DNA of 64,000 bases from Patescibacteria group bacterium. Lineage in GTDB: Bacteria > Patescibacteriota > JABMPQ01 > JAQVVF01. The position numbers and the translations under genes are program-made. The stretch lies in contig JBAZSC010000003.1 in assembly GCA_041662665.1 (NCBI GenBank), positions 76,333 through 140,332 on the forward strand, given 5' to 3'. Below are positions 1,528 through 57,660 of the stretch, piece after piece. Below the pieces are notes generated by a model that saw only the letters and a list, made by a program, of their open reading frames with translations, had not been told where the DNA came from and did not search any database. The first letter of the stretch is position 1, and every line of letters starts with the position of its first letter.

Positions 1528-3330
1528 ATGAAAAAATTAATCCGAAGAAACAGTTTAATGTTTTTAAGCGCTGTTTTTGTATTGGTACTTTCTTGCTTTG
1601 TTTTTTTGCAGAAAAATGTTCAGGCAGCAACTTGGCAGATTGAGACTGTGGATAATAGTTCGGATAATGTAGGTTCAGATAGTTCTTTGGCTTTGGATTC
1701 TTTTGGTAATCCAAGAATTAGTTATTTTGAAAATGAAAATAAAGCTCTTAAATATGCTTTTTGGAATGGATCTGCTTGGAATATACAAACGGTTGATGAT
1801 ACAGGTAGCGTTGGTCAATATACTTCTTTAGCATTAGATTCTTCTAACAATCCAAGGATTGCTTATCAAGATCTTTCGAATTATAGTCTCAAATACGCTT
1901 CTTGGAATGGCTCTGCTTGGGATATGCAGGCAGTTGATGAGACACATATTATTGCTCGCAGTATTTCTTTAGCATTGGATTCTTCTAACAATCCGAGAAT
2001 TAGTTATTATGATTGGTTTAATGATGATCTTAAATATGCTTCATGGGATGGTTTCGTGTGGGATATTCAGATAATTGATGTTGGTCAGCATCCTTCTCTA
2101 GCTCTAGATTCTTTTAATAACCCACATATTAGTTATTATGATGCTACTCTTGATGATCTCAAATATGCATCATGGAATGGATCTGCTTGGGTTATAGAGA
2201 CGATTGATTCAACAGGTGATGTTGGCGGAGATAATTCTTTAGCTTTGGATTCTTCTAATCACCCACATATTAGTTATTATGATGCTACTCTTGATGATCT
2301 CAAATATGAATCATGGAATGGATCTGCTTGGGTTATAGAGACGATTGATTCAACAGGTGATGTTGGCGGAGATAATTCTTTAGCTTTGGATTCTTCTAAT
2401 AACCCACATATTAGTTATTATGATGCTACTCTTGATGATCTTAAATATGCATCATGGAATGGATCTGCTTGGGTTATAGAAACAGTTGATTCAACAGGTG
2501 ATGTTGGCGGAGATAATTCTTTAGCTTTGGATTCTTCTAATAACCCACATATTAGTTATTATGATGCTACAAATGGTAATCTTAAATATGCTTTTGCTGA
2601 TGTTACTGCACCAATTACAACTGCAAGTCCAGCAGGTGGCATATATTCTTCAACACAATCAGTGGTATTAACAGCTGTTGATGATTCTGCATTTACAACA
2701 TATTATACAACTGACGGATCAGAGCCAACAACTTCTTCAACACAATATACTGTTCTAATTAGTATTTCTTCAGATACAACATTAAAATTCTTTTCCGTTG
2801 ATATTTATGGTAATGTTGAGAATGTAGAAACTGAAATTTATGAATTTGATCGTATTATTTTAACTTCAGAATTAAATAATCAAGCTGTCACTAGTTGTGG
2901 TTTAAAATTCAAGTTTAAGAAATTGCCTACAAAGTTAACTAAAGATAAAAAATACTGGATTAAATGTAAAAAGACTAAGAAGTATCCTAGAAAATGGCAG
3001 AATGCAAAAAAGACTGCCTTGAAGAAATATTGGAAGATAACTACTAATCTCAGAAAATACAAAGTTAAAAAATCTTCACAGAAATTTAAGATTAAAGTAG
3101 CTTTTAAGTATACTAAAGCAGAATTTAAGAAGTTGAGGAAAAGAAATAGATTGGCAAAAGAAAATAATTTGTTTTTGAAATTCAAGATTAAAAAAGGAAC
3201 TTGGAAATCATTATCTGATGTTTGGACTAATGCAAAGATCAAGCGTAATGTGAAAACGAATAGGTTCACTGTCACATATTTTACAAAGTTTCCTAAAAAG
3301 ATTTATTATTTTGGGATTGGATTGAAATAA
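1528..3330 (+). CDS. Secreted modular repeat protein: signal peptide, ~10 beta-propeller-type repeats (…SLALDSxNNPxISYYD…LKYASWNGSAW), chitobiase/beta-hexosaminidase C-terminal-like domain, lysine-rich C-terminal domain
   Basis: N-terminal hydrophobic signal; ~47-aa repeats; 'YYTTDGSEPTTSS…TLKFFSVDIYGN' CHB_HEX_C-like motif; about 160-aa tail with >30% Lys/Arg. Confidence 0.7.
   Translation: MKKLIRRNSLMFLSAVFVLVLSCFVFLQKNVQAATWQIETVDNSSDNVGSDSSLALDSFGNPRISYFENENKALKYAFWNGSAWNIQTVDDTGSVGQYTSLALDSSNNPRIAYQDLSNYSLKYASWNGSAWDMQAVDETHIIARSISLALDSSNNPRISYYDWFNDDLKYASWDGFVWDIQIIDVGQHPSLALDSFNNPHISYYDATLDDLKYASWNGSAWVIETIDSTGDVGGDNSLALDSSNHPHISYYDATLDDLKYESWNGSAWVIETIDSTGDVGGDNSLALDSSNNPHISYYDATLDDLKYASWNGSAWVIETVDSTGDVGGDNSLALDSSNNPHISYYDATNGNLKYAFADVTAPITTASPAGGIYSSTQSVVLTAVDDSAFTTYYTTDGSEPTTSSTQYTVLISISSDTTLKFFSVDIYGNVENVETEIYEFDRIILTSELNNQAVTSCGLKFKFKKLPTKLTKDKKYWIKCKKTKKYPRKWQNAKKTALKKYWKITTNLRKYKVKKSSQKFKIKVAFKYTKAEFKKLRKRNRLAKENNLFLKFKIKKGTWKSLSDVWTNAKIKRNVKTNRFTVTYFTKFPKKIYYFGIGLK
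2121..2575 (+). repeat. Intragenic 141-bp tandem repeat, about 3.2 near-identical copies (encodes 47-aa propeller repeats)
   Basis: Repeat starts at 2121, 2262, 2403 and 2544, giving a period of 141 bp; copies are almost identical at DNA level, unlike the upstream divergent repeats. Confidence 0.85.
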
Positions 3331-3407
3331 CTTTTCTCTAATATTAAAAATTTTGTATTCCAAGATTTTTAATTCTCTAATCGGCTTTTCGAATGTTATC
3401 TTTAATA

Positions 3408-3431
3408 AAAACCCGTCGAGTGACGGGTTTT
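3408..3431 (+). terminator. Rho-independent terminator hairpin (aaaacccgtcgagtgacgggtttt)
   Basis: Inverted repeat plus T-run after the stop at 3330. Confidence 0.6.
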
Positions 3432-3436
3432 GTGAT

Positions 3437-3489
3437 TTCTACCTGGCTTCAGCCAAGTGGTCGGAAAACTTTAGTTTTTAGTTCGAGAG
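3437..3489 (+). repeat. Two-hairpin intergenic element, copy 2
   Basis: TCTACC-cctggc/ttca/gccaagt-GGT…aaaac/tttag/tttt; paralogous to 1303-1353. Confidence 0.6.
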
Positions 3490-3509
3490 ATATTTAGATA
3501 TTGGATATT

Positions 3510-3582
3510 AGCCACTTCCCGGGATCGAACCGGGGACCTTTGCTTTACGAAAGCACTGCTCTACCAACTGAGCTAAAGTGGC
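3510..3582 (-). tRNA. tRNA-Thr (anticodon CGU)
   Basis: Reverse complement folds as a cloverleaf: acceptor GCCACTT/AAGTGGC, D-arm GCTC…GAGC, anticodon loop TTCGTAA, T-arm CCCGG-TTCGATC-CCGGG. Confidence 0.8.
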
Positions 3583-3584
3583 AT

Positions 3585-3655
3585 AGCGGGTAATGAGAAT
3601 CGAACTCACATATCTTGCTTGGGAAGCAAGCGCACTACCACTGTGCTATACTCGC
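3585..3655 (-). tRNA. tRNA-Gly (anticodon CCC)
   Basis: Reverse complement: D-arm GCAC…GTGC, anticodon stem CTTGC/GCAAG with loop TTCCCAA, T-loop TTCGATT, acceptor with one A-C mismatch. Confidence 0.75.
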
Positions 3656-3735
3656 TCATGATTCATTATTCTTAATTCATTATTCTTTAAGATTATACTT
3701 GATTTTTAAAATTTTGTAAATCATGCTAAAATGTA

Positions 3736-3801
3736 ACTAGTGAATAGTAATTAGTAACTAGATTCGACGTACTAATTACTAGTTACTTATTACTAGTTAA
3801 C
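3736..3801 (+). promoter_or_regulatory. Large imperfect palindrome (tagtaattagtaactag … ctagttacttattacta) immediately upstream of the 3812 gene; candidate operator
   Basis: About 16-nt arms around centre attcgacgtac, with iterated TAGTAA/TTACTA half-sites. Confidence 0.4.
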
Positions 3802-3811
3802 AAAAAATATT

Positions 3812-4894
3812 ATGTTGCAAAATAAAGACGTAACCAAACTTAACCGCTTACAAAGTGATAAAGAAGATGTTGTGACAATTTATTTGAATTGCGATCAAAG
3901 AAGATACAAGCCAGAAGAAATAGAAGAAAAATTAAAAGATTTATTGAAAATTGTTGGAGAAAAATTAGGTGCTGAAGAAACAAAGAAAATTGAAGAATGG
4001 ATTGATTTAAGATTAGATAAAAAAGTTAAAGGCATGGCATTTTATGCTAGTCCGTCTAAAAATTTTTGGTCGATTTATAAATTTCCTTGTCCAATTAAAA
4101 CAGGAGCTTATGTTGAAAAGAATGTTCATATCGAACAATTATTGCAAGTCTTGGATGAATTAGAAAGGTATTGTGTTGTAGTTTGTGACAAGGAAAAAGC
4201 AAAAATATTTACAGTTTTTTTGGGTGTCATTCAAGATTTTAGTTATATTTTTGATGAGTTTCCAGGAAAGCATGATCAAGGTGGATTAGCGCAACAAAAT
4301 CAGGCTTCGCATACTGAAGAACATGTTCGTCAGCATTTGAAAAAAATTAATGAACAATTATTTAAGTTCTGGAAAGAAAAAGGATTTGATAGATTAATTC
4401 TAGCTGGATCAAAAGAGGTCTTGCCGGAATTAAAAAAAGTTTTGCATACGGAATTAAAAAATAGAGTAGTCGGTGAATTTTTTACAGAATTATTTAAGCC
4501 TAACGAACATTTTTTGGAGCAGTCTTTAGTAGTTCAAGAAAAAGTAGAAAGACAGAATGAAAAAAAATTAGTTGATGAATTAAATAACAGCTTGAACGGT
4601 CAATTAGCAGTTGCTGGTTTGAAAAAAGTTTTAGATGCAATTCAAGAAAGAGATATAAAAGCTTTATTAGTGGATTCTAAATTAAGTACAACCGGCAAGA
4701 AATGTCCAAATTGTGATTTTTTGGGATTGGATGAAGTTGTTTGTCCTTATTGCAGTTTTAAAACTGAAGATGTGAAAGATGTTGTTGATGAATTAGTTCA
4801 AAAAGCATATAGCCATCGCGCGAAAATAGAGTTTGTTGAAAATAATGAAGTATTAGCGGGAATGGGTGGGATTGGAGCGATGCTACGGTTCTAG
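3812..4894 (+). CDS. Bacterial eRF1/Pelota-superfamily protein (baeRF1-like) with inserted zinc ribbon
   Basis: C-terminal 'LAGMGGIGAMLRF' matches the Pelota/eRF1 domain-3 ending (…GGIAAILRY); three-domain length of about 360 aa; CPNC…CPYC zinc-ribbon insert; 'HDQGG' in the central domain. Confidence 0.55.
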   Translation: MLQNKDVTKLNRLQSDKEDVVTIYLNCDQRRYKPEEIEEKLKDLLKIVGEKLGAEETKKIEEWIDLRLDKKVKGMAFYASPSKNFWSIYKFPCPIKTGAYVEKNVHIEQLLQVLDELERYCVVVCDKEKAKIFTVFLGVIQDFSYIFDEFPGKHDQGGLAQQNQASHTEEHVRQHLKKINEQLFKFWKEKGFDRLILAGSKEVLPELKKVLHTELKNRVVGEFFTELFKPNEHFLEQSLVVQEKVERQNEKKLVDELNNSLNGQLAVAGLKKVLDAIQERDIKALLVDSKLSTTGKKCPNCDFLGLDEVVCPYCSFKTEDVKDVVDELVQKAYSHRAKIEFVENNEVLAGMGGIGAMLRF

Positions 4895-5000
4895 TACTAA
4901 AGTTATAAAGTTTTTAAAGTTCATAAAGTAAAATTGTTAATTGCTAAATTGTTAGAATTATTTAACAATGGAACAATGGAACAATAAAACAATTTCGACT

Positions 5001-5900
5001 ATGAAACCTATCGAGCAAGATAAATTATTATTTCCAGAAATTCTAGCTCCCAGACCAAAAGAAGCTCACAAAAAATCTGTTGGCAGTGTGATGATTGTTG
5101 CTGGATCTGATGGGATGTCTGGAGCAGCAACTTTATGTTCTGAAGCAACAATGCGTGCTGGAGCTGGAATTGTGCTTTTGGCATTTCCAAAAAGTTTGTC
5201 TGAAATTTATACAAAATTAATTCCAGAAGTTTTGACATTGCCTTGCGATGAGACAAAAGAAAAAACTTTGGCATTGTCATCTTTAGATAAAATTTTGGAA
5301 GAAGCAAAAAAATACGATGTGATTTTGATTGGTCCAGGATTATCTCAAAATAATGAAACAAGAAAATTGATTTGTGAATTGTTTAAAAATCTAAAAAATT
5401 TGCATAAAAATGTGGTTTTAGATGCTGATGGATTAAACGCTATTGCTGGTCAAATAGAATTATTAGAAAAATTAGGTGATAACAAAACTATTTTATTGCC
5501 TCATGCTGGTGAGATGGCGAGATTAACAAATAAAGATGTTGATAATATTCAAAGAGATCGAGAATGGCTAGTTAGAAAAAAGGCAAAAGAATGGAAATGT
5601 GTTTTAGTGATAAAAGGTTATGAAACAGTTATTTCTGATGGTGAAAGAGTAATAATTAATAAATCTGGCGGACCGGAATTAGCAACTGCTGGAACTGGCG
5701 ATGCTTTGGCGGGCATGGTCGCTGCTCACTTTGCAGGAAATGTTAATCTGCCTTTTGAAGCAACTGCAACTGCTGTATATTTGCATGGTTTGGCTGGAGA
5801 TATGGTTAGCAAAAAGTTAGGTGAACGTTCTGTTTTGGCGACTGATGTGATAAATATGTTGCCTGAGGTAATAAAGAAAGTGTTAAATAAGTTAGACTAG
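5001..5900 (+). CDS. nnrD: ADP-dependent NAD(P)H-hydrate dehydratase (YjeF C-terminal / Nnr2 family)
   Basis: GSVMIVAGSDGMSGAA…GPGL…DADGLN…GGPELATAGTGDALAGMVAA motifs. The start is placed at an internal ATG (MKPIEQ) because the upstream part of the ORF overlaps an AACAATGG repeat array. Confidence 0.75.
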   Translation: MKPIEQDKLLFPEILAPRPKEAHKKSVGSVMIVAGSDGMSGAATLCSEATMRAGAGIVLLAFPKSLSEIYTKLIPEVLTLPCDETKEKTLALSSLDKILEEAKKYDVILIGPGLSQNNETRKLICELFKNLKNLHKNVVLDADGLNAIAGQIELLEKLGDNKTILLPHAGEMARLTNKDVDNIQRDREWLVRKKAKEWKCVLVIKGYETVISDGERVIINKSGGPELATAGTGDALAGMVAAHFAGNVNLPFEATATAVYLHGLAGDMVSKKLGERSVLATDVINMLPEVIKKVLNKLD

Positions 5901-7423: not shown

Positions 7424-7572
7424 AATGCGATAATATAAATGCGAGTTAAATAGATTAGACTGATTTGATAAAAAATAAAATTAATAAAATGTTTGATTGC
7501 TAGATTGTTGAATTGTTAAATTGTTAATAATTTAACAATGAAATAATTTAATAATTTATTGTAAATAATAAA

Positions 7573-9684
7573 ATGACAAAATTTAACAAAATTTTTATTT
7601 GGAGCGTTGTTTTTGTGTTAACAATTTTTGGCTTGGCTAATTTTAGCCAAGCTAGAACATGGACGCAAAGCGGGACAGATGGATTAGGAGATACAGCTAA
7701 TTGGAATTTCTATGGTTTTCAGACAATTGGCAATTCACTTTTTACGGGATCTTTGTATGTGGGTCCTGCTAATGGCGCTCAAGCTTTTACAACGTCAGAT
7801 GGATCAACTTGGGTTTCAGTTGATGCAACTGGTTTTGGAGATGGCAACAATTATTCTTATGGAGGCGGAAATACAACATTTAACAATAATGTTTATTTTT
7901 GTTTGAGAAATATTACAACTGGAGCAGAGGTTTGGTCAACATCAAATACTGGCGTTTTGTCTGCTTCACAAGTTAATGTGGATGGTTTTGGAGCTGGCAA
8001 TCAAAATGCTGATTGTTATTTCTTGAAAGAATATAAGGGTATTTTGTATGGCGGAACGGAAAATACAACTGCAGGAGGTCAAGTTTATGCTTATTCTAAT
8101 GGAACAACTTGGACACAAACAAATACTAATGGTTTTGGCAGTATTAATAACGATATTTTTTATTCAGGTGAGGTTTTTAAAAACTACTTATATGTTGGAA
8201 CACGCAATGCTACAACTGGCGGACAGATTTGGCGGACAGATGGAAGTACTTGGTCGCAGGTAACTGGCGATGCATTTGGAGTTGGCAATGCTAGTTATGG
8301 AATTATGACTCTGCAAACTTTTGGTAATTATCTTTATGCTGGTATTGCTAACAATGGCGGTGCGCAAATTTGGCGAACTAGCGATGGTGTTAACTGGACA
8401 AATACTGGTTTTAGCAGCACTTTTAGCTTGAGTATTCAAGGTATGTATGCAACTGACAATTTATTGTTTGCTGGGACCTCAAATCTTGGCAGTGGAGCAG
8501 GTGTTTTTGAAACAAGCGATGGTACAAATTGGATTCAAAATAATGTTGGAGGTTTTGGTACAAGCGGTATTATGGGCAATATTATAGTAAGGGGTATGGG
8601 GTTATTTGGCGATTATTTGTATGCTGGCGCATTTAAAGCTAATGGAGGTACAATTTGGAAAACCGATATAATTCCTCCGATTGTGACAGCTAGCCCAGAT
8701 AATAAAGCTTCTAGAAAAAAGATTAAAGTGACATTATCAAGCAATGACAGTTCAGGATCAATTTATTACACAACTGATGGTTCAATACCGACAACTGGAT
8801 CAAATTTGTATACTGGACAGATAACTTTTAAAAAGACTAAAATTTTAAAATTTATTGGTGTTGATACTGAAGGCAATGTGAGTTCAGTTCAAACGAAACA
8901 TTATGTTGTAACAAGCTATCCATATTTATATAATACTAACAAAGAATTGCGCGAGAAGAATGGGACAATAAAATTTTATAATATTTCAACTTCTAAATAT
9001 GGCAAGAAATTTAAGCCGTTTTCTTCTGGTTTGAAATATTTTACGGTTGCTGATCCAAATCAAGATAATAAGACAGAAATTATTGCAAATAATGGAAATG
9101 AAATTAAGTTTTATAATTCTAAAAGAAAGCTAAGATATACTTTGAAAAGTGCGAATGATTATTTAACATTTGGTGATATTAATAATAGCAAAAAAGAAAA
9201 AACTTTGATTGCAAAAGCTAAGACTTTAAAAATTTATAACAAGACAAGTTTAGAGAAAACATTTAATTTTTCAGAAAATATAAAAAGTATTGCAGTCGGC
9301 AGAGTATTGAAATATGATCAGCCTTTGATAATTGTTGGTTTTGATGATCAGATTAAATTATATAAATATAAAAATAAAAGTTTAGTTTTGAAAAAAACAA
9401 AGTCATTAAACTACAGTAAATTATTGGCTTATGATTTGGATACTAATGGAACTGATAACATTATTTATTCTAAAAACAAAAAAGTTTATGTATTAAATAA
9501 GAAGTTGAAGAAAAAGTTTTCTTTTAGCGCTGGCGGAAGTTTTTTAGCAGTAGCAGATGTCAATGATGACTATTTATTAGAAATTTTAGCAAGTACTGGA
9601 AAGAAATTAAAAACTTATTCAAATGAAGGAATTTTGTTGAATAGCAAAAAAGATAGCGGGAAATGGATTGGAGCAAGATTTTAA
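7573..9684 (+). CDS. Secreted modular repeat protein: signal peptide, Thr/Gly/Trp-rich beta-propeller-like repeats (…GGQIWRTxDGxxWTQ…GFG…), CHB_HEX_C-like domain, Lys-rich C-terminal region
   Basis: Signal peptide; iterated ~45-aa repeats; 'IYYTTDGSIPTTGSNLYTGQI…LKFIGVDTEGN' motif; basic C-terminal 300 aa. Confidence 0.65.
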   Translation: MTKFNKIFIWSVVFVLTIFGLANFSQARTWTQSGTDGLGDTANWNFYGFQTIGNSLFTGSLYVGPANGAQAFTTSDGSTWVSVDATGFGDGNNYSYGGGNTTFNNNVYFCLRNITTGAEVWSTSNTGVLSASQVNVDGFGAGNQNADCYFLKEYKGILYGGTENTTAGGQVYAYSNGTTWTQTNTNGFGSINNDIFYSGEVFKNYLYVGTRNATTGGQIWRTDGSTWSQVTGDAFGVGNASYGIMTLQTFGNYLYAGIANNGGAQIWRTSDGVNWTNTGFSSTFSLSIQGMYATDNLLFAGTSNLGSGAGVFETSDGTNWIQNNVGGFGTSGIMGNIIVRGMGLFGDYLYAGAFKANGGTIWKTDIIPPIVTASPDNKASRKKIKVTLSSNDSSGSIYYTTDGSIPTTGSNLYTGQITFKKTKILKFIGVDTEGNVSSVQTKHYVVTSYPYLYNTNKELREKNGTIKFYNISTSKYGKKFKPFSSGLKYFTVADPNQDNKTEIIANNGNEIKFYNSKRKLRYTLKSANDYLTFGDINNSKKEKTLIAKAKTLKIYNKTSLEKTFNFSENIKSIAVGRVLKYDQPLIIVGFDDQIKLYKYKNKSLVLKKTKSLNYSKLLAYDLDTNGTDNIIYSKNKKVYVLNKKLKKKFSFSAGGSFLAVADVNDDYLLEILASTGKKLKTYSNEGILLNSKKDSGKWIGARF

Positions 9685-9741: not shown

Positions 9742-9834
9742 AAAAATATTTAATTATATAATTGACAATAATGATTTAAAGATTTAAGATACTTTGAGAT
9801 GTTTTCCCCAGATTGGGAAGGAGAGGAGGGAGAA

Positions 9835-10845
9835 ATGACAGACAGAAAACAGGTAGTTCTTTCAGGAATTAGAGCGACAGGACAAATGCATTTGGGCAAT
9901 TACCTTGGAGCAATGCGTCATTTTGTGGAATTAAGCAGAGATCCTAGCAAGCGATGTTTTTTCTTTGTGGCTGATTTGCACACATTGACGACTTTGAAAG
10001 ATCGGCAACAAATGGCAAAGCATTTGCCAAATATCGTTTTGGATTATTTGGCTGCTGGAATTGATCCTAGGGTTGCAACTTTGTATGCTCAGTCATCTGT
10101 GCCAGAAATTTCCGAGCTTTTTTGGCTATTGTGCAATTTTATGCCAGTTGCTGATTTGTTGCTTTGTCCGTCTTACAAGGATAAGGCGTCCAAGAATCCT
10201 CAAATTGCTGGTTTGTTGAATTATCCAATTCTGATGGCTGCTGATATTTTGGCTCCCAGAGGCGAATTGATTCCTGTCGGCCATGATCAAATTCCGCACG
10301 TTGAAATGGCAAGACAGATTGCTCGTGATTTTAATCGAGAGGTTGAAGAAGAGCTTTTTGTAATTCCAGAACATTTGGGTGGCGAATCAATTACTGTGAA
10401 GGGGTTGCATGGTGAAGGAAAGATGGGTAAAAGTGAAAAGCCGGATTCAACTATTTTCTTGACTGATAGCTATGATATTGTTTGGGGTAAATTGCGGACA
10501 GCAACTACTGATCCAGATAGGAAAAGAAGAAATGATCCAGGAAATCCAGCAGTTTGCAATGTATTTACTTTGCACACACTTTTGTCTCCAGATGAGAAAT
10601 TCCGAGAAATGGCCGAAGGTTGTCGAACTGCTTCGATTGGATGCATTGATTGTAAGAAAGAATTGATGATTCATTTGTGGAAATTGTTGGCTGAATTTCA
10701 AGCAAATCGCCAGCGAATTTTGCAGAATGGAGGCATTGATTATGTTAGGAATGTTCTGATTGAAGGTGGAAAAAATGCAAGGTCTGTGATTCAGTTTACT
10801 GTGCAAAGAGCACAAGAATTGATGGGTGTAGCAACTTATCTTTGA
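9835..10845 (+). CDS. trpS: Tryptophanyl-tRNA synthetase
   Basis: Class-I aaRS motifs HLGNYLGA (HIGH-like) and KMGKS (KMSKS). Strong SD GGAGAGGAGGG upstream of ATG 9835. G+C visibly higher than flanking genes. Confidence 0.9.
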   Translation: MTDRKQVVLSGIRATGQMHLGNYLGAMRHFVELSRDPSKRCFFFVADLHTLTTLKDRQQMAKHLPNIVLDYLAAGIDPRVATLYAQSSVPEISELFWLLCNFMPVADLLLCPSYKDKASKNPQIAGLLNYPILMAADILAPRGELIPVGHDQIPHVEMARQIARDFNREVEEELFVIPEHLGGESITVKGLHGEGKMGKSEKPDSTIFLTDSYDIVWGKLRTATTDPDRKRRNDPGNPAVCNVFTLHTLLSPDEKFREMAEGCRTASIGCIDCKKELMIHLWKLLAEFQANRQRILQNGGIDYVRNVLIEGGKNARSVIQFTVQRAQELMGVATYL

Positions 10846-12711: not shown

Positions 12712-13093
12712 AACTTAAAACTTTAAAAATCGTTGACCTGGAAAAAGTAAGTTAGTTATTTTTAAAAGTCTGCTTTCGCTAAAGCTACAGCAGACGAAGC
12801 GAATAAGGGATAGTGAGAGCCTTATAAAAATACTAGCTGAAAATGGATCCAGCGAGATGATAAGTTAAATACTTATCCGGTTGCCTCCGTAACCATAGGC
12901 TAACTGATATCTTGAATCCACCTTTGCTAAAGCTTCGGTGGACAAAGGAGTCAGTAAGTGATCAGTGTTTTTGCACTGATAAACAAGGTGGTAACACGGG
13001 AAGACTTCTCGTCCTTGAATACTTTTTAGAAGTATTTTAGGATGAGAAGTTTTTTGTTATGATCGATCTTTCACAACGCAAGGAGGAGAGAAG
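12712..13093 (+). promoter_or_regulatory. About 380-nt structured 5' leader of the RPH-like gene, containing two copies of the CCGCC-hairpin element and several other stem-loops
   Basis: Promoter TTGACT-N17/18-TATAAT at 12677-12708. Hairpins at 12769-12801, 12858-12882 and 12916-12950; a weak terminator-like hairpin at 13018-13040; SD AAGGAGGAG at 13080. Confidence 0.45.
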
Positions 13094-15619
13094 ATGAAAG
13101 TTCTATACCTGAGAAATCTGATGGGTTTGGAAGTGTCGCAGATTGGTGGCAAAGCATTTAATTTGGGCAAGTTAATTATGGCTGGATTTAATGTACCAAG
13201 TAGAGGTTTTGTGTTAGATGTGGATGTTTTGGACAGTTGGCCAAGTGGACGTGAAGAAGTAGCAGATTTTTTTGTAGATTATTTTGGTGGACAAGTCGTA
13301 GCTGTGAGAAGTTCAGCAGTAGCAGAAGATTCTGGATCAGCTTCTTTTGCTGGTCAGTACAAAACTACCTTGCATGTTAGGACTAGGGAAGAATTTTTGC
13401 GAGCAGTTGATGATTTCGTTGCTGGTTTGCTTGATGATGGCATTCAAGCATATCAGACAGTAGTTAAGCAGAAAGATTCAGGTCGACGGCAGGCAGCTTT
13501 GATTGTTCAGGAAATGGTTGAAGCAGAAATTGCTGGTGTGCTTTTTACGGTTAACCCACTCGATGGTTTGGACGAGATGATGATTACAGCAGCTTCTGGT
13601 ATTGGTGAGGCATTGGTATCTGGTCAGGTGACTGGAGATACATATGTTGTTGATAGAGATGGGATGCTCAAAAAGATGGTTATCGGCGGTGTAAAAAAAG
13701 ATTTGCGAGATGGTGTTGGCTTGATGACAAATAGAGATGTTGCTGAGAGAATTTTGGATGATAGTTTGCTGATGTATTTAGTAAAAATTGGCAAGCGGGT
13801 TGAAGAACTATTCCAATGTCCGCAAGATATCGAATGGGCAATTGTTGGTTCGCAGATTTTTTTGCTGCAAGCTCGACCAATTACGGCAATGTCTACTTTG
13901 GGTTTGCAGCGTCAAAAAGTTATTGATGATCTTGGAAATTCTTTTGAAAAAGAGAGAGCGAGATTGGAAGAGTTAGGTGTTGTATTGGCAACTGATTGTT
14001 TTTCTGATCAAAATATTGCTGAGCTTTTGACTCGTCATCCTACGCCAATGGCTTTTGGAGCATTCTGTTATATTTTTGCTGATGGCGAAGCTGGAATCCG
14101 GCTTGGTCGCAATCAAATGGGTTATGAGATTGGGTCAGAACTTGATCATGGTTTTTTCAGATTAGTTGGTGGTCAACCTCGTTGTAGTATTGTTCATGAT
14201 GCTTTTACTTATCGGATTGCTGGAATTCCGTTGTCGGATTATGCGATTTTGGTGAGATATTATTTGGAGAAAATTGCTGAAGATTCTAAAATGGCAAATT
14301 ATCCAGAAGTAGTGCTCTATAAGCAAGATCCGAGTTTGGAATTTCTGACAGAATTGTTTGGAGCAGAAAAAGCACAGTTCTATCGAGTGGCTTTTGATCG
14401 ATTTTTTACTGGATTAGCAGTGTTGATTGAGCAAACGGTGTTGGAGATGAAGACATTCGAAGATGATTTTAGGGCTTATATTGCAAGAGAGAAAGTCAAG
14501 ATGGAAAGTTTGGACATGAATCTTCAAGCTAATATTGCTCTATGCATGGAAATGTTTGATCATCTGCGAACTGTTGCTTGTGTGATGTTTGTTAAAGTTG
14601 CACGTTTGGGATTTTTTGCTTATGCACGACTTCGAGAAAAAATGGCATTGCATTATGGTAAAGAAAAGGGCGAGCAGTTGTTAGCAACATTAACTAGTGG
14701 ATTGGATAATGATCCGTCTTTGCATTTCAATGTTTGTTTGGCACAGTATCGTGATGGTCAAATCACTTTTTCTGAACTTTTGGAAAGATATGGTCATTTG
14801 GGTGCGAATGAACTAGAGGTTTCAGGATTGCGTTATCATGAAGATTCAAGTTTGTTGGAGCGTTACGCAGAACAGATTGCTGGAGATCCTCGTGTTGAAT
14901 TGGCACGCAGAAAGGCAGAATGTGATAAGGTTCGTGCAACTGTGGCAACGGAATTGGGAGAAGAAGTGGCTAGCTGGGTTGAGGTAGCGCGACAGTATTT
15001 GGCTGGTAGAGAATTAATCAAATATCTTTATTTGATGGAATATGATTTAGTTCGGCAAATGTTACTTAGAATCGAAAAGATTTTACATTGGGAAGATGAT
15101 TTGGTCTTCTGTCTTTATCCAGGAGAGATTCCAATGTTGCAATATGATAGCGAACGTATCCATAGAAAAGCAGTTGCGCGTTTGCAGCGTAGGCGTGAGC
15201 AAATGAATATCTATGTTCCGCCAGTAATTTTCTCTGATGATTTGGAGAGGATCGGTCAATCTCCATATCAAGCATCTGATAAGATTTTGACTGGCTTTGG
15301 AGTGACAGATCAGGTGGTGACTGGAGAGGTAGTTAAAGTGGCTGATCCAAGGGATAGAAAACAAATTGCCAAGCTTTTTGCAGGTTGTGTTCTAGTGACA
15401 ATGACAACTGATCCTTCTTGGGCCCCATTGATTGCAGCGATTGGTAGTAACGGTGGTTTGGTGACTGAGATTGGAGGTCCTTTGGCGCATGGGGCAATTG
15501 TAGCTAGAGAATTGGGAATTGGCGCTGTCTTGGATGTTACTGGAGCAATGCAGATTTTGCAGGATGGAATGAGAGTAGAGGTTAATGGTCCTTTGGGAGT
15601 TGTGAAGATTTTGGATTGA
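13094..15619 (+). CDS. PEP-utilising-enzyme family protein with PPDK-N ATP-grasp domain and C-terminal swivelling His domain (rifampin-phosphotransferase / PEP-synthase-like)
   Basis: N-terminus 'QIGGKAFNLGKL…GFNVPSRGFVL'; C-terminus 'LVTEIGGPLAHGAIVARELGIGAVL' (PEP-utilisers mobile-domain His); no PEP-binding TIM barrel; about 840 aa like the Rph family. Confidence 0.7.
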   Translation: MKVLYLRNLMGLEVSQIGGKAFNLGKLIMAGFNVPSRGFVLDVDVLDSWPSGREEVADFFVDYFGGQVVAVRSSAVAEDSGSASFAGQYKTTLHVRTREEFLRAVDDFVAGLLDDGIQAYQTVVKQKDSGRRQAALIVQEMVEAEIAGVLFTVNPLDGLDEMMITAASGIGEALVSGQVTGDTYVVDRDGMLKKMVIGGVKKDLRDGVGLMTNRDVAERILDDSLLMYLVKIGKRVEELFQCPQDIEWAIVGSQIFLLQARPITAMSTLGLQRQKVIDDLGNSFEKERARLEELGVVLATDCFSDQNIAELLTRHPTPMAFGAFCYIFADGEAGIRLGRNQMGYEIGSELDHGFFRLVGGQPRCSIVHDAFTYRIAGIPLSDYAILVRYYLEKIAEDSKMANYPEVVLYKQDPSLEFLTELFGAEKAQFYRVAFDRFFTGLAVLIEQTVLEMKTFEDDFRAYIAREKVKMESLDMNLQANIALCMEMFDHLRTVACVMFVKVARLGFFAYARLREKMALHYGKEKGEQLLATLTSGLDNDPSLHFNVCLAQYRDGQITFSELLERYGHLGANELEVSGLRYHEDSSLLERYAEQIAGDPRVELARRKAECDKVRATVATELGEEVASWVEVARQYLAGRELIKYLYLMEYDLVRQMLLRIEKILHWEDDLVFCLYPGEIPMLQYDSERIHRKAVARLQRRREQMNIYVPPVIFSDDLERIGQSPYQASDKILTGFGVTDQVVTGEVVKVADPRDRKQIAKLFAGCVLVTMTTDPSWAPLIAAIGSNGGLVTEIGGPLAHGAIVARELGIGAVLDVTGAMQILQDGMRVEVNGPLGVVKILD

Positions 15620-16320: not shown

Positions 16321-16325
16321 AGGGG

Positions 16326-16398
16326 CGGGCCAGGAGGGATTCGAACCCACAGCATTCGGTTTTGGAGACCGACGCTCTACCATTAGAGCTACTGGCCC
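16326..16398 (-). tRNA. tRNA-Trp (anticodon CCA)
   Basis: Reverse-complement cloverleaf: acceptor GGGCCAG/CTGGCCC, D-arm GCTC-TAATGGTA-GAGC, anticodon stem TCGGT/ACCGA with loop CTCCAAA, T-loop TTCGAAT. Confidence 0.8.
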
Positions 16399-16482
16399 GC
16401 AAGGTGCAAGAAAAGTAAAGAACGTGTATTTATGATGTCATCATATATCTTTGATTTTGCTTTGTCAAATTTGACTTGTGGA

Positions 16483-17907
16483 TTACTGGTGAGCTTTTTT
16501 CCATTCTTGGTCAGCTAGGTCAAGATCAGAAACAAAACGTTTGATGAAAGGAATAGTGTGGGGCATAATACAAATCTTGTAGACAATCAATGGACAACTG
16601 AGTGGATCTAACGTATTTTTTGGAAAATAATCAGAACGAAGATGATAAGGCTGAAGAATTCCATGTTCTAGGATTTGTTTGGGGATTTCTCCACCTTCAA
16701 TGTCAATGACCATTGGAGCAAAGTTGACATGAGGTGAATACGGCATAATTTTGATCCAATTTAGATTAGCATTTTCCTTAATCAATCTAACTAGCTCATT
16801 TCTTGTTTCAAGACATTGTTGGACATATTTTCGTTGTCCATTCTGTCCTTCTGCCTGAAAGAGATATCGAGCTAAAACAGGAGAGAGGCAAGATCGTGAT
16901 CCAGAAACAGTGTCATGATCATGACCTCGGACGTATTGAACACGTCGAGCAACAAGTCTCATCAAATCTTTGCGACAGAGAAAAACTCCAGCAGGATAAG
17001 GTAGTCTTCCCATTTTGTCGCCGTCAATGGTTACTGACATGACATTAGGAACATTGAATCCAATTTTAGGTGCATTAATGTTGCAAAAAGGAATTGTAAA
17101 ACCGCCAAAGCTAGCATCAACATGCAAATAAAATCGGACATCTTGAGTAGTGTTGCGATCAATGAAATTACTGATCGCTTCGATTGGATCAATTGAGCCA
17201 AGTACAGTTGTTCCAGCTGTTGCAATAATCAGAAATCTTCTGAAGCCTTCATGGATTTTTTGGTTAACAATTTCTTGTAATGATCCAATATCCATTTCGC
17301 CTCGTTCGTTCATGCCAACAAGATTGAGTCCGCAACCGCGATGATCTGGTGTAAACAGATGATCTTTGCTACAGTGAACGCAATGTAACCATTGCGGTTC
17401 GCCAAAATCGAGCATTTCTAAAGCTTGAGAAATAGAGAAGTGCTGCAAAGGAGTTGCTAATGCGACAATTCCGCGATTATTAGGATCTGGACATTGGCGC
17501 AAATATTGTCTGCCGATCCAGAGTCCTTCAATATTGGCTTCAGTACCACCTCCGCAAAAATATCCTTCGGTTGTTGCTGGTGTGCCACCGATAACTGATG
17601 CAAGCATCCAGATTGCTTCAGCTTCCATTCTTTGAACAACTTCAAAACCGCCTTCACCATCTTGGAATTTCAAATTTCCATTATCGTCAATTTCAATGTG
17701 GGTATGACTGCCAATAGCATTGATTTGTTTAGCGAGCAGACTTTTTGCACGACCAAGTACGCCTTTTGGCAGAGTTGTACCAGGATAACAAAATGGCGGA
17801 ATCTCTTGTTCATATGGTGAAGAAATGCTGGCTACGATTTTGGCAATACCTTGTTGATCATGTCCATTTTCTGGCCATTCCCAATCTTGTCTTTTGTTGA
17901 CGTTCAT
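16483..17907 (-). CDS. PLP-dependent group II amino-acid decarboxylase (glutamate/tyrosine decarboxylase-like)
   Basis: 'LHVDASFGGF' (compare GAD 'HVDAASGGF'), 'GTTVLGSIDPI', and Lys in 'IDGDKMG'; SD AAGGGAGGGAAAA upstream of ATG at 17907. Confidence 0.65.
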   Translation of the reverse strand: MNVNKRQDWEWPENGHDQQGIAKIVASISSPYEQEIPPFCYPGTTLPKGVLGRAKSLLAKQINAIGSHTHIEIDDNGNLKFQDGEGGFEVVQRMEAEAIWMLASVIGGTPATTEGYFCGGGTEANIEGLWIGRQYLRQCPDPNNRGIVALATPLQHFSISQALEMLDFGEPQWLHCVHCSKDHLFTPDHRGCGLNLVGMNERGEMDIGSLQEIVNQKIHEGFRRFLIIATAGTTVLGSIDPIEAISNFIDRNTTQDVRFYLHVDASFGGFTIPFCNINAPKIGFNVPNVMSVTIDGDKMGRLPYPAGVFLCRKDLMRLVARRVQYVRGHDHDTVSGSRSCLSPVLARYLFQAEGQNGQRKYVQQCLETRNELVRLIKENANLNWIKIMPYSPHVNFAPMVIDIEGGEIPKQILEHGILQPYHLRSDYFPKNTLDPLSCPLIVYKICIMPHTIPFIKRFVSDLDLADQEWKKAHQ

Positions 17908-18078
17908 TTTCTTTTTTCCCTCCCTTGTTGTGAAGGTGCTTCTGCGAAGTTTATAACAATAATTTGATTTTGGCAAGGGCAGGATTTATTTAAATGATAA
18001 TTTTGTTTTTGTCAAGATGTTCATAACTGCATTGACAAATATATTTAAGACGCTATTATTAGATAAACACTTAAATTT

Positions 18079-32301: not shown

Positions 32302-33396
32302 TTGATTTTAAGTCGGAAACATTTTATTATAAATAATATGGAACACATCCAAGATATAAATTTAGTGACAAATGCAGCAAAAGTTTTGATTATGACAGCA
32401 ATAGCTTTTGTGACTGCAATTTTGTTGACTCCTGTTTTAACTCATTTCTTGTATAAATACAAAATGGGCAAAAGTATCAGAACTTCTGGAGCTCCAGTTT
32501 ATACAAAAATGCATAAAGGCAAGGAAGGAACGCCAACAATGGGCGGAATTTTAGTTTGGTTGACTGTATTAATTTTGGCTTTGCTTTTTTTGATTTTAAG
32601 TACTTTTTTTAACAATTACTTTGGTTGGATGAATTTTTTATCTAGATCGGAAACTTGGTTGCCTTTGTTTGCATTAGTTGTTACTGCTTTGATCGGACTT
32701 GTTGATGATATAATGAATGTTTTCAAAATTGGTCCAAATGGCGGAGGTTTGAGAATGAGATCTCGATTGTTGGTTTACACTATTATTGCGACTGTTGGTG
32801 CTTGGTGGTTTTATTTTAAATTAGGTTGGGATTCAATTCATATTCCTGGAGTTGGAGATTTCACGATTGGCTGGTGGTATTTTCCATTATTTATTTTAGT
32901 AATTGTGGCAACATCTTTTTCGGTTAATGAATCAGATGGATTGGATGGATTAGCTGGTGGAATTCTTTTAACTTGTTTTAGCGCATTTGCGGTTATTGCA
33001 TTTATGCAAGGTCAAGTTGATCTTGCAACTTTTTGTGGTGCAATTGTTGGCGCATTGTTAGCTTTTTTGTGGTTTAATATTTATCCTGCTAGATTTTTTA
33101 TGGGAGATACCGGAGCAATGGCTCTTGGTACTACTCTTGGAATTGTAGCAATGCTGACTAATTCCGTTTTCGTTTTGCCAATCATTGGATTGCCATTAGT
33201 AATGGAATCTGCGTCAGTACTAATTCAAGTATTTTCGAAAAAAGTTTTAAAACGAAAAGTTTTTATTTCAACTCCGATTCATCATCATTTTGAAGCTTTG
33301 GGTTGGCCAGAAACAAAAGTAACAATGAGATTTTGGATTATTGCTATTATATCAGCAGGGTTGGGGTTGATTATAGGACTGATTGGAAGAGGTTAA
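32302..33396 (+). CDS. mraY: Phospho-N-acetylmuramoyl-pentapeptide transferase
   Basis: 'GTPTMGGI', 'DDIMN', 'NESDGLDGLAGG' MraY motifs; 10 TM helices; the true start may be the ATG at 32338. Confidence 0.85.
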   Translation: MILSRKHFIINNMEHIQDINLVTNAAKVLIMTAIAFVTAILLTPVLTHFLYKYKMGKSIRTSGAPVYTKMHKGKEGTPTMGGILVWLTVLILALLFLILSTFFNNYFGWMNFLSRSETWLPLFALVVTALIGLVDDIMNVFKIGPNGGGLRMRSRLLVYTIIATVGAWWFYFKLGWDSIHIPGVGDFTIGWWYFPLFILVIVATSFSVNESDGLDGLAGGILLTCFSAFAVIAFMQGQVDLATFCGAIVGALLAFLWFNIYPARFFMGDTGAMALGTTLGIVAMLTNSVFVLPIIGLPLVMESASVLIQVFSKKVLKRKVFISTPIHHHFEALGWPETKVTMRFWIIAIISAGLGLIIGLIGRG

Positions 33397-33400
33397 AATT

Positions 33401-33505
33401 ACAAATCCCAAAATACAAACAAATCCCAAATTACAAATTGCAAACATTAAATATTCATTGTGTTTTGTAAATTGTAATTTGTTTGGGATTTGGAATTTGT
33501 TTTTT
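33401..33505 (+). repeat. About 100-bp intergenic palindrome built from ACAAATCCCAAA direct and inverted repeats
   Basis: acaaatcccaaaatacaaacaaatcccaaattacaaattgcaaac … gttttgtaaattgtaatttgtttgggatttgg. Confidence 0.6.
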
Positions 33506-33524
33506 TGGTAGTTTAAAATAAATT

Positions 33525-36809: not shown

Positions 36810-36938
36810 TACAAATATACGAATTTATACAAATCTACGAATATGCGAATTAGCGAATTCGTACATTAGTATATTTGTAAAGTGGCATTAATTTGTTTCT
36901 AAGGTCACAAATTAATTTTGTAGATTGGTATCATATTT

Positions 36939-38516: not shown

Positions 38517-38545
38517 AAATTGTGGTTTTGAAGGTGAGTTAAATA

Positions 38546-38605
38546 GGTTAGATAAGTTAGACTGGTTAGATTTGTTAACGCTAACTAGTTTAACTTATCT
38601 AACTA
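38546..38605 (+). repeat. GTTAGAYNN 9-bp array forming an inverted repeat (ggttagataagttagactgg … ctagtttaacttatctaac)
   Basis: Tandem heptamer cores plus a 19-nt palindromic arm. Confidence 0.6.
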
Positions 38606-38620
38606 ATTTAATTAATTTCT

Positions 38621-54200: not shown

Positions 54201-54265
54201 GTTAGATTAGTTAGATAGGTTAGACTGGTTATTTATAAATTGTTCAATTGTTAAATTGTTAATAT
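54201..54265 (+). repeat. GTTAGATNN array followed by ATTGTTAA array
   Basis: gttagatta gttagatag gttagactg gtta … attgttca attgttaa attgttaa. Confidence 0.65.
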
Positions 54266-54308
54266 TAATTTTGACAATTTAGCATTTTAACAATTAAACA
54301 ATTAAGTT

Positions 54309-54632: not shown

Positions 54633-54654
54633 TTTTTATAAAAATATTTTAATT

Positions 54655-54775
54655 TTGAGAATTTAGAATTTAGAATCTGGAATCTAGAATAGAATAGAGA
54701 ATTTGGAATAAAATAATTCTCATTTTACTTTCTAATTCTATTCAAAATTCTAGATTCAAGATTCTAGATTCTTAA
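54655..54775 (+). repeat. About 120-bp imperfect palindrome of 7-bp AATYTAG units (tagaatctggaatctagaatagaatag … ctattcaaaattctagattcaagattctagattc)
   Basis: Inverted arrays directly upstream of the secA ATG. Confidence 0.6.
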
Positions 54776-54779
54776 TTTT

Positions 54780-57565: not shown

Positions 57566-57660
57566 TCTACCCAACTTCAGTTGGGGTTAGGTGAACTTTA
57601 GTTCACGGACGACGAAAAACTAAAGTTTTTTTGACCCCAACTGAAGTTGGGTAGGGTACT
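57566..57660 (+). repeat. MITE-like inverted-pair version of the two-hairpin element (ctacccaacttcagttggggt … accccaactgaagttgggtag); likely also the secA terminator
   Basis: 21-nt perfect terminal inverted repeats flanking gtgaac/ttta/gttcac and an A/T run. Confidence 0.65.

Follow-up and report, generated by a model that had tools for sequence, protein, structure and literature searches.

What is a homologue of the archaeal and eukaryotic release factors doing in a bacterium, and does it still act on peptidyl-tRNA? The question is raised by a gene at positions 3812..4894 (plus strand) of a 64,000-nucleotide stretch, here called the window, of contig JBAZSC010000003.1 from a Patescibacteria group bacterium (assembly GCA_041662665.1). 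The gene is a single ATG-initiated open reading frame (ORF), stop included, for a product of 360 amino acids (aa), and homologues begin at the same Met. The ORF, Pfam and Protein Data Bank (PDB) searches, an AlphaFold model and Foldseek identify the product as a bacterial homologue of archaeo-eukaryotic release factor 1 (aeRF1) that belongs to the Pfam family baeRF_family10, in the Balon superfamily. By analogy with its studied relatives it is most likely a Balon-like, codon-independent blocker of the ribosomal A site, which would keep ribosomes silent and protected in growth arrest or stress; a probability of about 55% is given to this reading.

Bacterial eRF1 homologues have recently been shown to include widespread hibernation factors (Balon), and only three proteins have been studied. 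The original prediction for this gene looked instead to ribosome rescue or quality control, a role that the literature does not support, since all bacterial homologues characterised so far are hibernation factors (PMC10901736).

The protein and its nearest relatives

Membership in baeRF_family10 is secure. The Pfam model (PF18854) matches aa 106-225 with 86.6 bits against a gathering cutoff of 27.1, and all listed homologues carry it. The eRF1_3 domain (PF03465) is found at 34.5 bits (cutoff 25.8), and the sister families baeRF_family12 and Host_attach are also matched. The RNase-H-fold middle domain, eRF1_2 (PF03464), scores 25.2 bits, slightly below its cutoff of 27.1, in a region covered by baeRF_family10; acVLRF1 (PF18859) gives a weak match of 23.4 bits, below a cutoff of 27.1. 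The original prediction had proposed an eRF1/Pelota-type protein, and the hidden Markov model (HMM) search it suggested bears this out, with significant matches to all four of these families (baeRF_family10, baeRF_family12, Host_attach and eRF1_3) as well as to aRF1, eRF1 and Balon chains in the PDB. The length of 360 aa and the motifs it had quoted, HDQGG, CPNC, CPYC and GMGGIGAMLRF, are all present. A 100% identical protein, from a Patescibacteria group bacterium metagenome-assembled genome (MAG), is recorded as 'host attachment protein' at NCBI and as eRF1 at JGI.

Which characterised protein is closest? A single-sequence phmmer search of the PDB places Msmeg1130, a Balon, at the top (E 2.5e-9 over aa 85-360), with eRF1 next. 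A family profile of 32 homologues finds Msmeg1130 over the full length with 114 bits (E 6e-32), aRF1 (4af1) with 87 bits and eRF1 with about 70; Pelota reaches 42 bits, and the other Balons in the PDB, Rv2629 and that of P. urativorans, reach 40 and 31 bits. The structure prediction that had likewise been suggested, an AlphaFold 2 (AF2) model on the homologue alignment, is a confident three-domain model resembling Balon and aRF1 (predicted local distance difference test score, pLDDT, 87.9; predicted template modelling score, pTM, 0.76). Foldseek gives a probability of 1.00 to eRF1, aRF1, Pelota and Balon. Its template modelling (TM) scores, which for multi-domain proteins vary with the domain arrangement picked by AF2 and call for reserve on that account, are 0.80-0.86 for ribosome-bound Msmeg1130 (8v9j/8v9l), 0.79 for Rv2629, 0.71-0.74 for P. 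urativorans Balon, 0.5-0.59 for aRF1/eRF1 and 0.26-0.44 for Pelota/Dom34.

Is the protein then a Balon? By the wide definition of Helena-Bueno et al. (2024), where the name covers any bacterial aeRF1 homologue of at least 300 aa from iterated HMMER searches, it is: it resembles Balon and aRF1, exceeds that length, has three domains and is bacterial.

A Pelota/Dom34-like factor is very improbable. Such a protein, non-catalytic, would sense empty A sites on truncated mRNAs and promote subunit splitting; the eRF1_3/Pelota-type C-domain, the significance of the Pelota chains (42 bits with the profile, Foldseek E 1e-10 to 1e-11) and the lack of a literal GGQ would all fit. Yet Pelota stands well below Balon, aRF1 and eRF1 by sequence and by structure, and the N-domain profile described below has no Pelota match at E<=10; on this PDB profile ranking, the Foldseek comparison and the N-domain profile, Pelota is rejected as the closest relative. 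Its partners ABCE1 and Hbs1 are not known as bacterial proteins, which also counts against it. Finally, a conserved GG loop would be atypical, the Dom34 loop being poorly conserved (Burroughs & Aravind, PMC6514570).

Ribosome blocker or catalytic factor

Does the protein read a codon? Its N-terminal domain (aa 1-118, boundary approximate; 3812..4165, plus strand) is of the Balon type. A profile of aa 1-122 finds Balon chains only in the PDB (Msmeg1130, E 3.4e-6; P. urativorans Balon, E 0.012), with no aRF1, eRF1 or Pelota chain at E<=10. A conserved Y24-L25-N-x-D28 follows strand 1 of the domain, and the YxCxxxF region of eRF1, YLCDNKFH, pairs with YVEKNVH. Because the N-domain profile matches Balon chains only, NIKS is absent from the protein by motif search and the tip of the helix-hairpin expected to hold it is unconserved, with indels, the factor would be codon-independent. 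A classical release factor, or an alternative reader of stop codons, was considered and rejected: GGQ, NIKS and YxCxxxF are missing, and the aRF1 model TIGR03676 lies far below its cutoff. A class-I release factor motif (GGQ, then HVN) was also sought, and none occurs within the 64-kb window.

Has the middle domain kept a catalytic loop? The equivalent of the GGQ loop, P151-G-K-H-D-Q-G157-G158-L159-A160-Q161 (4262..4294, plus strand), pairs without a gap with PKKHGRGGQSA of eRF1 and PGKQRKGGQSA of aRF1. HDQGG (aa 154-158) had been placed where eRF1 has GGQ. In the alignment G157-G158 are the GG of GGQ, but the position of the catalytic Gln holds L159, and Q161 lies two residues on; a motif search finds no GGQ in the whole protein. 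Residues 152-161 are the sole disordered stretch of the AF2 model (pLDDT<50). Conservation was counted over 177 full-length representatives of the family: G157 is kept in 141 and G158 in 143, position 159 is Trp in 110, and position 161 is Gln in 95 and Glu in 38, with the pattern GG-x-(S/A)-Q in 75. In the helix after the loop, R163 (102 representatives) and R166 (140) align to R189 and R192 of eRF1. The window protein and its closest relatives depart from the family consensus GGWSQxRxQRH by W159L, R163N and R166S. On these counts the best-conserved loop element of the family is GG-Trp rather than Gln, and the window protein carries a relaxed version of the loop. Catalysis is disfavoured, which falls short of proof, because GG-Trp outranks Gln in conservation, the Gln position holds Trp in the family and Leu here, the Gln at +2 is kept in 95 of 177, and the loop is relaxed in this protein, with R163 and R166 lost.

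Outside the Patescibacteria loci (in L006-L080), family 10 shows two loop classes, with a zinc ribbon in all. One is a short loop of aRF1 length with GGW(S/A)Q, found in Chloroflexota and Patescibacteria, among others. The other is longer, lacks GG and ends in [WR]SQ, and comes mostly from Acidobacteriota, Nitrospira and others.

The alternative would be an active enzyme that rescues stalled ribosomes in proteotoxic stress, either as a codon-independent hydrolase of peptidyl-tRNA or by Vms1-like cleavage of tRNA. In this case the GG-x-(S/A)-Q loop, which pairs gap-free with PGK...GG.S of aRF1/eRF1, would do the job of GGQ of aRF1, and a possible activity was predicted for family 10 in 2019 (PMC6514570). 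GGxSQ is reported in archaeal and actinobacterial VLRF-1 families (PMC6514570). GGxuQ occurs in every listed sequence of the candidate phyla radiation (CPR) clade except P0016, which has GGWRQ, and all loops of the GGxuQ class have the same length, 19. In other phyla, the neighbouring HtrA, FtsH, DnaJ and Hsp20 would handle the aberrant peptides released. All the same the alternative is unlikely. Trp or Leu occupies the canonical Gln position, the Gln at +2 is conserved in only 54% of the family (Glu in 21%), the window protein is without R163 and R166, and the best sequence and structure matches are non-catalytic Balons, whose type of N-domain it also has. Contexts with chaperones and sigma factors are equally reported for Balon (PMC10901736).

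A broader form of the idea is more doubtful still, namely that family 10 as a whole is an aRF1-derived, codon-independent catalytic release or rescue factor, with a Balon-type N-domain, a Gly-Gly/Gln loop that cuts peptidyl-tRNA and a zinc ribbon for delivery. If true, the family would stand between archaeal aRF1 and Balon both in evolution and in function, and could be a main route for clearing stalled ribosomes in genome-reduced Patescibacteria.

The third domain carries a Cys4 zinc ribbon (C298, C301, C311 and C314; 4703..4753, plus strand) within its eRF1_3/Pelota-type fold, CPNC being aa 298-301 and CPYC aa 311-314. The original prediction spoke of an insert. The ribbon is real, but it is an inherited family hallmark and not a novel insert, because Cys4 runs through the family (155 of 177 representatives; in another 14, Asp replaces one Cys), the four cysteines pair with the Cys-containing insert of archaeal aRF1 4af1, and classical aeRF-1 proteins are described with a zinc ribbon inserted in the Pelota domain (Burroughs & Aravind, PMC6514570). 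In many baeRF-1 families an insert of two strands takes its place, perhaps a zinc ribbon that has degenerated (Burroughs & Aravind, PMC6514570). The C-terminal strand GMGGIGAMLRF (aa 350-360; 4859..4891, plus strand) is the eRF1 domain-3 signature and pairs with GFGGIGAVMRY and GFGGIGGILRY of eRF1; A356, L358 and R359 are near-invariant across the family. The protein is a mosaic, with a Balon-like N-domain, an aRF1-like middle-domain loop and an aRF1-like Cys4 zinc ribbon in the C-domain.

How might such a mosaic act? By homology, this three-domain member of the bacterial aeRF1 clade would be shaped like a tRNA and work in the ribosomal A site. The Balon-type N-domain would dock at the decoding centre and read no codon, the middle domain would set the Gly-Gly loop (GGLAQ) beside the peptidyl-transferase centre, and the zinc-ribbon C-domain would be turned to the GTPase-associated site and EF-Tu. 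Occupancy of the A site would silence and protect ribosomes once growth stops, which is hibernation and not stop-codon-dependent termination. Msmeg1130 and Rv2629 are known to bind the ribosomal A site (PMC10901736).

The genomic surroundings of the family bear on the stress role. Bacterial eRF1 homologues had been described as rare; this does not hold, as about 20% of representative bacteria have one (PMC10901736), and 1.84 billion cluster representatives (50%-identity clusters), searched exhaustively, yielded 2534 matches at E<=1e-3, 1387 at E<=1e-10 and 239 at E<=1e-30. A scan with one genome per species gave 184 loci. Among the best 80 of these are five from MAGs of Patescibacteria/Parcubacteria/'Saccharibacteria', with identities of 42-89%; the remainder, 25-35% identical, come from Chloroflexota, Acidobacteriota, Gemmatimonadales, Rokubacteria, Nitrospira, Acidimicrobiales and others. 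ORFs within 4 kb of the gene were clustered, and the clusters identified by Pfam, for the 75 loci outside the CPR. The neighbours, mostly on the same strand, include HtrA (12 loci), a sigma-70-type factor (11), DnaJ (9), Hsp20 (9), a BON/PRC protein (8), rhomboid (7), an SDH-type ClpP-like protease, a MerR-family regulator and FtsH (5 each). A role in stress is suggested because 33 of the 75 loci have at least one of these stress or proteostasis genes, in agreement with the stress-response contexts reported for Balon genes (PMC10901736).

Several points weigh against a Balon-type blocker and have to be set beside this evidence, together with the reserve on TM scores noted above. The NCBIfam Balon models NF052287, NF052288 and NF052289 score 75.2, 71.8 and 41.6 bits against equivalog cutoffs of 480, 330 and 320; the two named models are MSMEG_1130 (75 bits, cutoff 480) and AOC03_06830 (72 bits, cutoff 330). 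By these cutoffs the protein is an orthologue of none of the three characterised Balons. The NCBIfam aRF1 model TIGR03676 scores 74.1 bits, level with the Balon models, against a cutoff of 234.7, and the protein is outside aRF1/eRF1 proper. In Balon a His-Pro motif of the N-domain contacts A1492 and A1913; by motif search the window protein has no such dipeptide, and the HMM alignment puts REHP of P. urativorans Balon opposite Q29-Y32, in the loop after strand 1, and D-P of Msmeg1130 opposite D28-Q29. The Gly-Gly loop, of aRF1 length and sequence, a Gln that does not vary within the CPR clade and the intact zinc ribbon have been kept, unlike in the characterised Balons. Q161 is found in at least 90% of the 32 closest homologues, and Burroughs & Aravind (2019) singled out family 10 as possibly catalytic (PMC6514570). 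The Patescibacteria loci, window included, have no stress-gene neighbours. Several baeRF-1 families are reported to be linked to HPF/RaiA, but BLAST found no such gene within +-6 kb of 81 loci, a weak test with approximate E. coli HPF and B. subtilis YvyD queries. The literature searched holds no experiments on any family-10 protein, and nothing on family 10 or on Balon in the CPR beyond PMC6514570 and PMC10901736.

Why does the answer matter? The family, its motif and its possible activity were already described in 2019 (PMC6514570), and the window protein adds one member. Its branch is large (239 clusters at E<=1e-30) and uncharacterised, and has the ancestral aRF1 Gly-Gly loop and zinc ribbon, yet a Balon-type N-domain. 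The protein is a good test case for when catalysis was lost between release factor and hibernation factor, and for whether the EF-Tu-binding hairpin of Balon is a degenerate zinc ribbon. Several Patescibacteria lineages carry the gene, which bears on translation shut-down in minimal episymbionts.

Promoters, upstream hairpin and neighbouring genes

Two tRNA genes, tRNA-Gly(CCC) at 3584..3656 and tRNA-Thr(CGU) at 3510..3582, lie upstream on the minus strand (ARAGORN, Rfam). The original prediction had pointed to these neighbours. They are there, but they are divergent and have a predicted, near-consensus promoter of their own. A tRNA-Gly is also adjoining and divergent in four related loci (L001, L002, L081 and L083), and the adjacency is lineage-specific synteny. 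A functional tie was looked for, and only the kept adjacency and overlapping promoters were found.

The putative tRNA-Gly/tRNA-Thr promoter, TTTACA-17-TATAAT (3692..3720, minus strand), agrees with the consensus at 11 of 12 positions in a pattern scan. The putative promoter of the eRF1-like gene, TTTAAA-16-TGcTAAAAT (3705..3732, plus strand), is a consensus match only, of the extended -10 type (9 of 12 positions, with an upstream TG). ATTATA, TGTAAAT and TGnTAnAAT are invariant in five orthologous loci. The gene is thus predicted to be transcribed from an extended -10 promoter that overlaps a strong divergent tRNA promoter, the two standing back-to-back with a 16-bp overlap. They probably cannot be occupied at once. 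It may be speculated that mutually exclusive occupancy would couple expression of the factor to the shut-down of tRNA transcription.

Two further structures lie near the tRNA genes. At 3408-3431 there is a GC-rich stem with T-runs on both sides (AAAACCCGTCGAGTGACGGGTTTT), probably a bidirectional terminator for the plus-strand gene that ends at 3330 and the minus-strand tRNA pair. In L002 (5792-5890) and L081 (about 112-210), an inverted repeat, perfect over 19 nt (CCCCGTAC.AAGTTTCTG ... CAGAAACTT.GTACGGGG), encloses a loop of about 61 nt and is inserted between tRNA-Gly and the promoter block; it is absent in the window and in L001, and may represent a structured RNA or some small inserted element.

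A palindrome of 66 bp (3736-3801) had been read as an operator. The repeat is real, but it is imperfect: the arms, 3734-3761 and 3772-3799, are 28 nt long and 82% complementary, with 94% over the inner 17 nt. As RNA, the AT-rich stretch 3732..3802 (plus strand), a putative 5'-leader stem-loop that ends 9 nt 5' of the ATG, has a folding energy of -25.1 kcal/mol; dinucleotide shuffles give -13.6 +/- 2.7 (z -4.25), and not one in 200 reaches its stability. A hairpin is found between the -10 box and the ATG in eight loci, the window and seven related ones, with z from -2.4 to -6.4 and unrelated sequences. The stems are GTAGGGAGCAAAA... in L001 (z -6.4), GTAGGGGTTCAA... in L002 (z -4.5), AGAAAATAGG... 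in L081 (z -3.2) and a long AT-rich stem in L083 (z -4.5); L003-L005 have GC-rich stems about 45 nt into the leader, with the module duplicated in L005 (z -2.4 to -6.1). Because position and pairing are kept and sequence is unrelated, a structural role is favoured over a sequence-specific operator, and the palindrome is more likely a 5'-leader RNA stem-loop. The mRNA is predicted to begin at or near this long stem-loop, which would probably act at the RNA level, in 5'-end protection or control of initiation. 5'-Terminal stem-loops shield bacterial mRNAs from 5'-end-dependent decay, and a stem that ends 9 nt from the AUG could gate initiation. On the other side, in the window and in L001 transcription is predicted to start within the 5' arm of the hairpin, which might therefore act at the DNA level instead.

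How probable is an operator? A site for a dimeric repressor, overlapping the transcription start, would be well placed, with the repeat starting directly after the -10 box in the classical repressor position, and L001 and L002, though only these, have the outer half-sites GTAGGG-N16-CCCTAC in common. But the inner stems of these two loci differ and are each self-complementary, which fits selection for pairing; the sequence is wholly different in the window, L081 and L083 despite 63-91% mutual protein identity; and in L003-L005 the hairpin lies about 45 nt 3' of the -10 box with yet another sequence. The arms are found nowhere else in the window, and no regulator gene adjoins. Nor is the hairpin peculiar to this gene: similar long AT-rich imperfect palindromes occur in at least seven other window spacers, and of the 40 spacers that are at least 50 nt long, 18 reach z<=-3 in folding, in a few cases owing to tRNAs or a T-box. 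An operator is accordingly improbable, and an RNA stem-loop is the reading retained.

Other identities of the palindrome were considered. An Rfam scan of 3400-5000 gave the two tRNAs and two sub-threshold chance matches only, so that no known RNA family is assigned to the leader. A dispersed repeat is rejected, the arms having no other copy in the window. A terminator of an upstream gene is rejected also, for what lies upstream are divergent tRNAs, and the preceding plus-strand gene has its own probable terminator at 3408-3431.

The 43%-identity clade offers a variation. In L005 (5795-6000), L003 (5905-6000) and L004 (2335-2435), conserved leader blocks (AAAGAAAAATAAATAG..TTTGTTTACTTACTCGC ... 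CTTCGTAAATAA) flank a variable GC-rich hairpin, and it is the hairpin-plus-CTTCGTAAATAA module that is duplicated in L005. This may be a lineage-specific leader RNA.

Among the spacer palindromes of the window are those at 7496-7558, 33395-33506, 36819-36896, 38539-38611, 54231-54303, 54650-54780 and 57567-57654. Their arms are 25-46 nt, most are AT-rich with short degenerate repeats, and many stand between co-directional genes. They may be terminators, or processing or stability elements, typical of the genome; the GC-richer one at 57567-57654, between convergent genes, is probably a bidirectional terminator. The T-box leader at 12724-13019 (plus strand; Rfam 99.8 bits, gathering score 93) precedes an ORF at 13094-15619 for an 841-aa PPDK_N/phosphoenolpyruvate-utilising-enzyme protein, which is no aminoacyl-tRNA synthetase. 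The specifier loop reads ...GAAAAUGGAUCC... and its specifier may be UGG (Trp), judging by these letters. Near the T-box are a tryptophanyl-tRNA synthetase (9799-10845), tRNA-Trp (16323-16399) and a pyridoxal phosphate-dependent decarboxylase (16483-17976, minus strand).

What surrounds the gene? Downstream at 4968..5900 (plus strand) is a gene for NAD(P)H-hydrate dehydratase (Pfam Carb_kinase, 170 bits). The 73-nt spacer (4895-4967) is unstructured (z +1.55) with no terminator found in it, 3' of the 360-aa ORF, and the two genes are probably co-transcribed. The neighbours in the window are a SurA-like peptidyl-prolyl isomerase (PPIase), the tRNAs, NAD(P)HX dehydratase, a presenilin-type peptidase and an HD protein; in the Patescibacteria clade the context is unlike that of the other phyla and uninformative, with the SurA-like PPIase and tRNAs upstream, and NAD(P)HX dehydratase, a phosphoribosyltransferase or an ABC transporter downstream. 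Recent horizontal acquisition is rejected, since the GC content of the gene (31.2%) fits that of the window (32.4%) and its relatives keep the gene in synteny with the PPIase and tRNAs. A component of anti-phage defence is rejected as well; PADLOC gave one marginal match only (E 0.0047, 14 bits). Two large repeat proteins of 600 and 703 aa, probably secreted, are encoded at 1528-3330 and 7573-9684 and have a CHB_HEX_C_1/Fn3_assoc domain in common. In the first, units of about 44 aa (SLALDS..NP.ISYYD) are repeated in tandem, and the C-terminal tail is very rich in Lys.

Family 10, release factors, VLRF-1 and Balon

How does the protein compare with known systems? It resembles baeRF_family10 (PF18854; PMC6514570) in an HMM score threefold over the cutoff, in three-domain architecture, in the C-domain zinc ribbon and in the conserved loop Gln after a tiny residue, Q161 following G157-G158-L159-A160. 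It differs from the family consensus at three positions that are otherwise well conserved (W159L, R163N and R166S), and its CPR locus lacks the proteostasis genes that adjoin the family in Chloroflexota, Acidobacteriota and further phyla.

With aRF1/eRF1 (PDB 4af1, 1dt9; TIGR03676) it has in common the three-domain fold, the gap-free loop PGK-x3-GG-x-S, the zinc-ribbon site of 4af1 and the C-terminal G-x-GG-I-G-A-x-x-R-[FY] strand. Unlike these release factors, it has Leu (Trp in the family) in place of the catalytic Gln, lacks NIKS and YxCxxxF, and has an N-domain that, taken alone, is undetectable as aRF1-like; TIGR03676 is below cutoff and the global TM score is just 0.5-0.59. The likeness to VLRF-1 (Vms1/ANKZF1-like; acVLRF1 PF18859) lies in GG-x-(S/A)-Q, which is the GGxSQ of the archaeal and actinobacterial families (PMC6514570). 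The difference is that the window protein has the full three-domain aeRF1 architecture, without the N-terminal extension or the domain losses of VLRF-1.

The Balons compared were those of P. urativorans, M. smegmatis (Msmeg1130) and M. tuberculosis (Rv2629), with PDB entries 8rd8, 8v9j and 8v9k (PMC10901736). Identity to them is only 12-19%. Msmeg1130 has ERAGQMRE, aligned with one gap, where the Gly-Gly loop stands here; Balon has a beta-hairpin that contacts EF-Tu(GDP) at the site that corresponds to the intact Cys4 zinc ribbon; and the literal His-Pro motif of P. urativorans Balon is missing. In its middle domain Balon has a bL27 trap and a lasso loop that encircles A2602; residues 152-161 of the present model have pLDDT<50. 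It is nonetheless Balon that provides the top sequence and structure match in the PDB, the type of N-domain, the joint absence of NIKS and a literal GGQ, and the stress-operon context at the level of the family. The protein is of moderate interest, chiefly as an intermediate between aRF1 and Balon.

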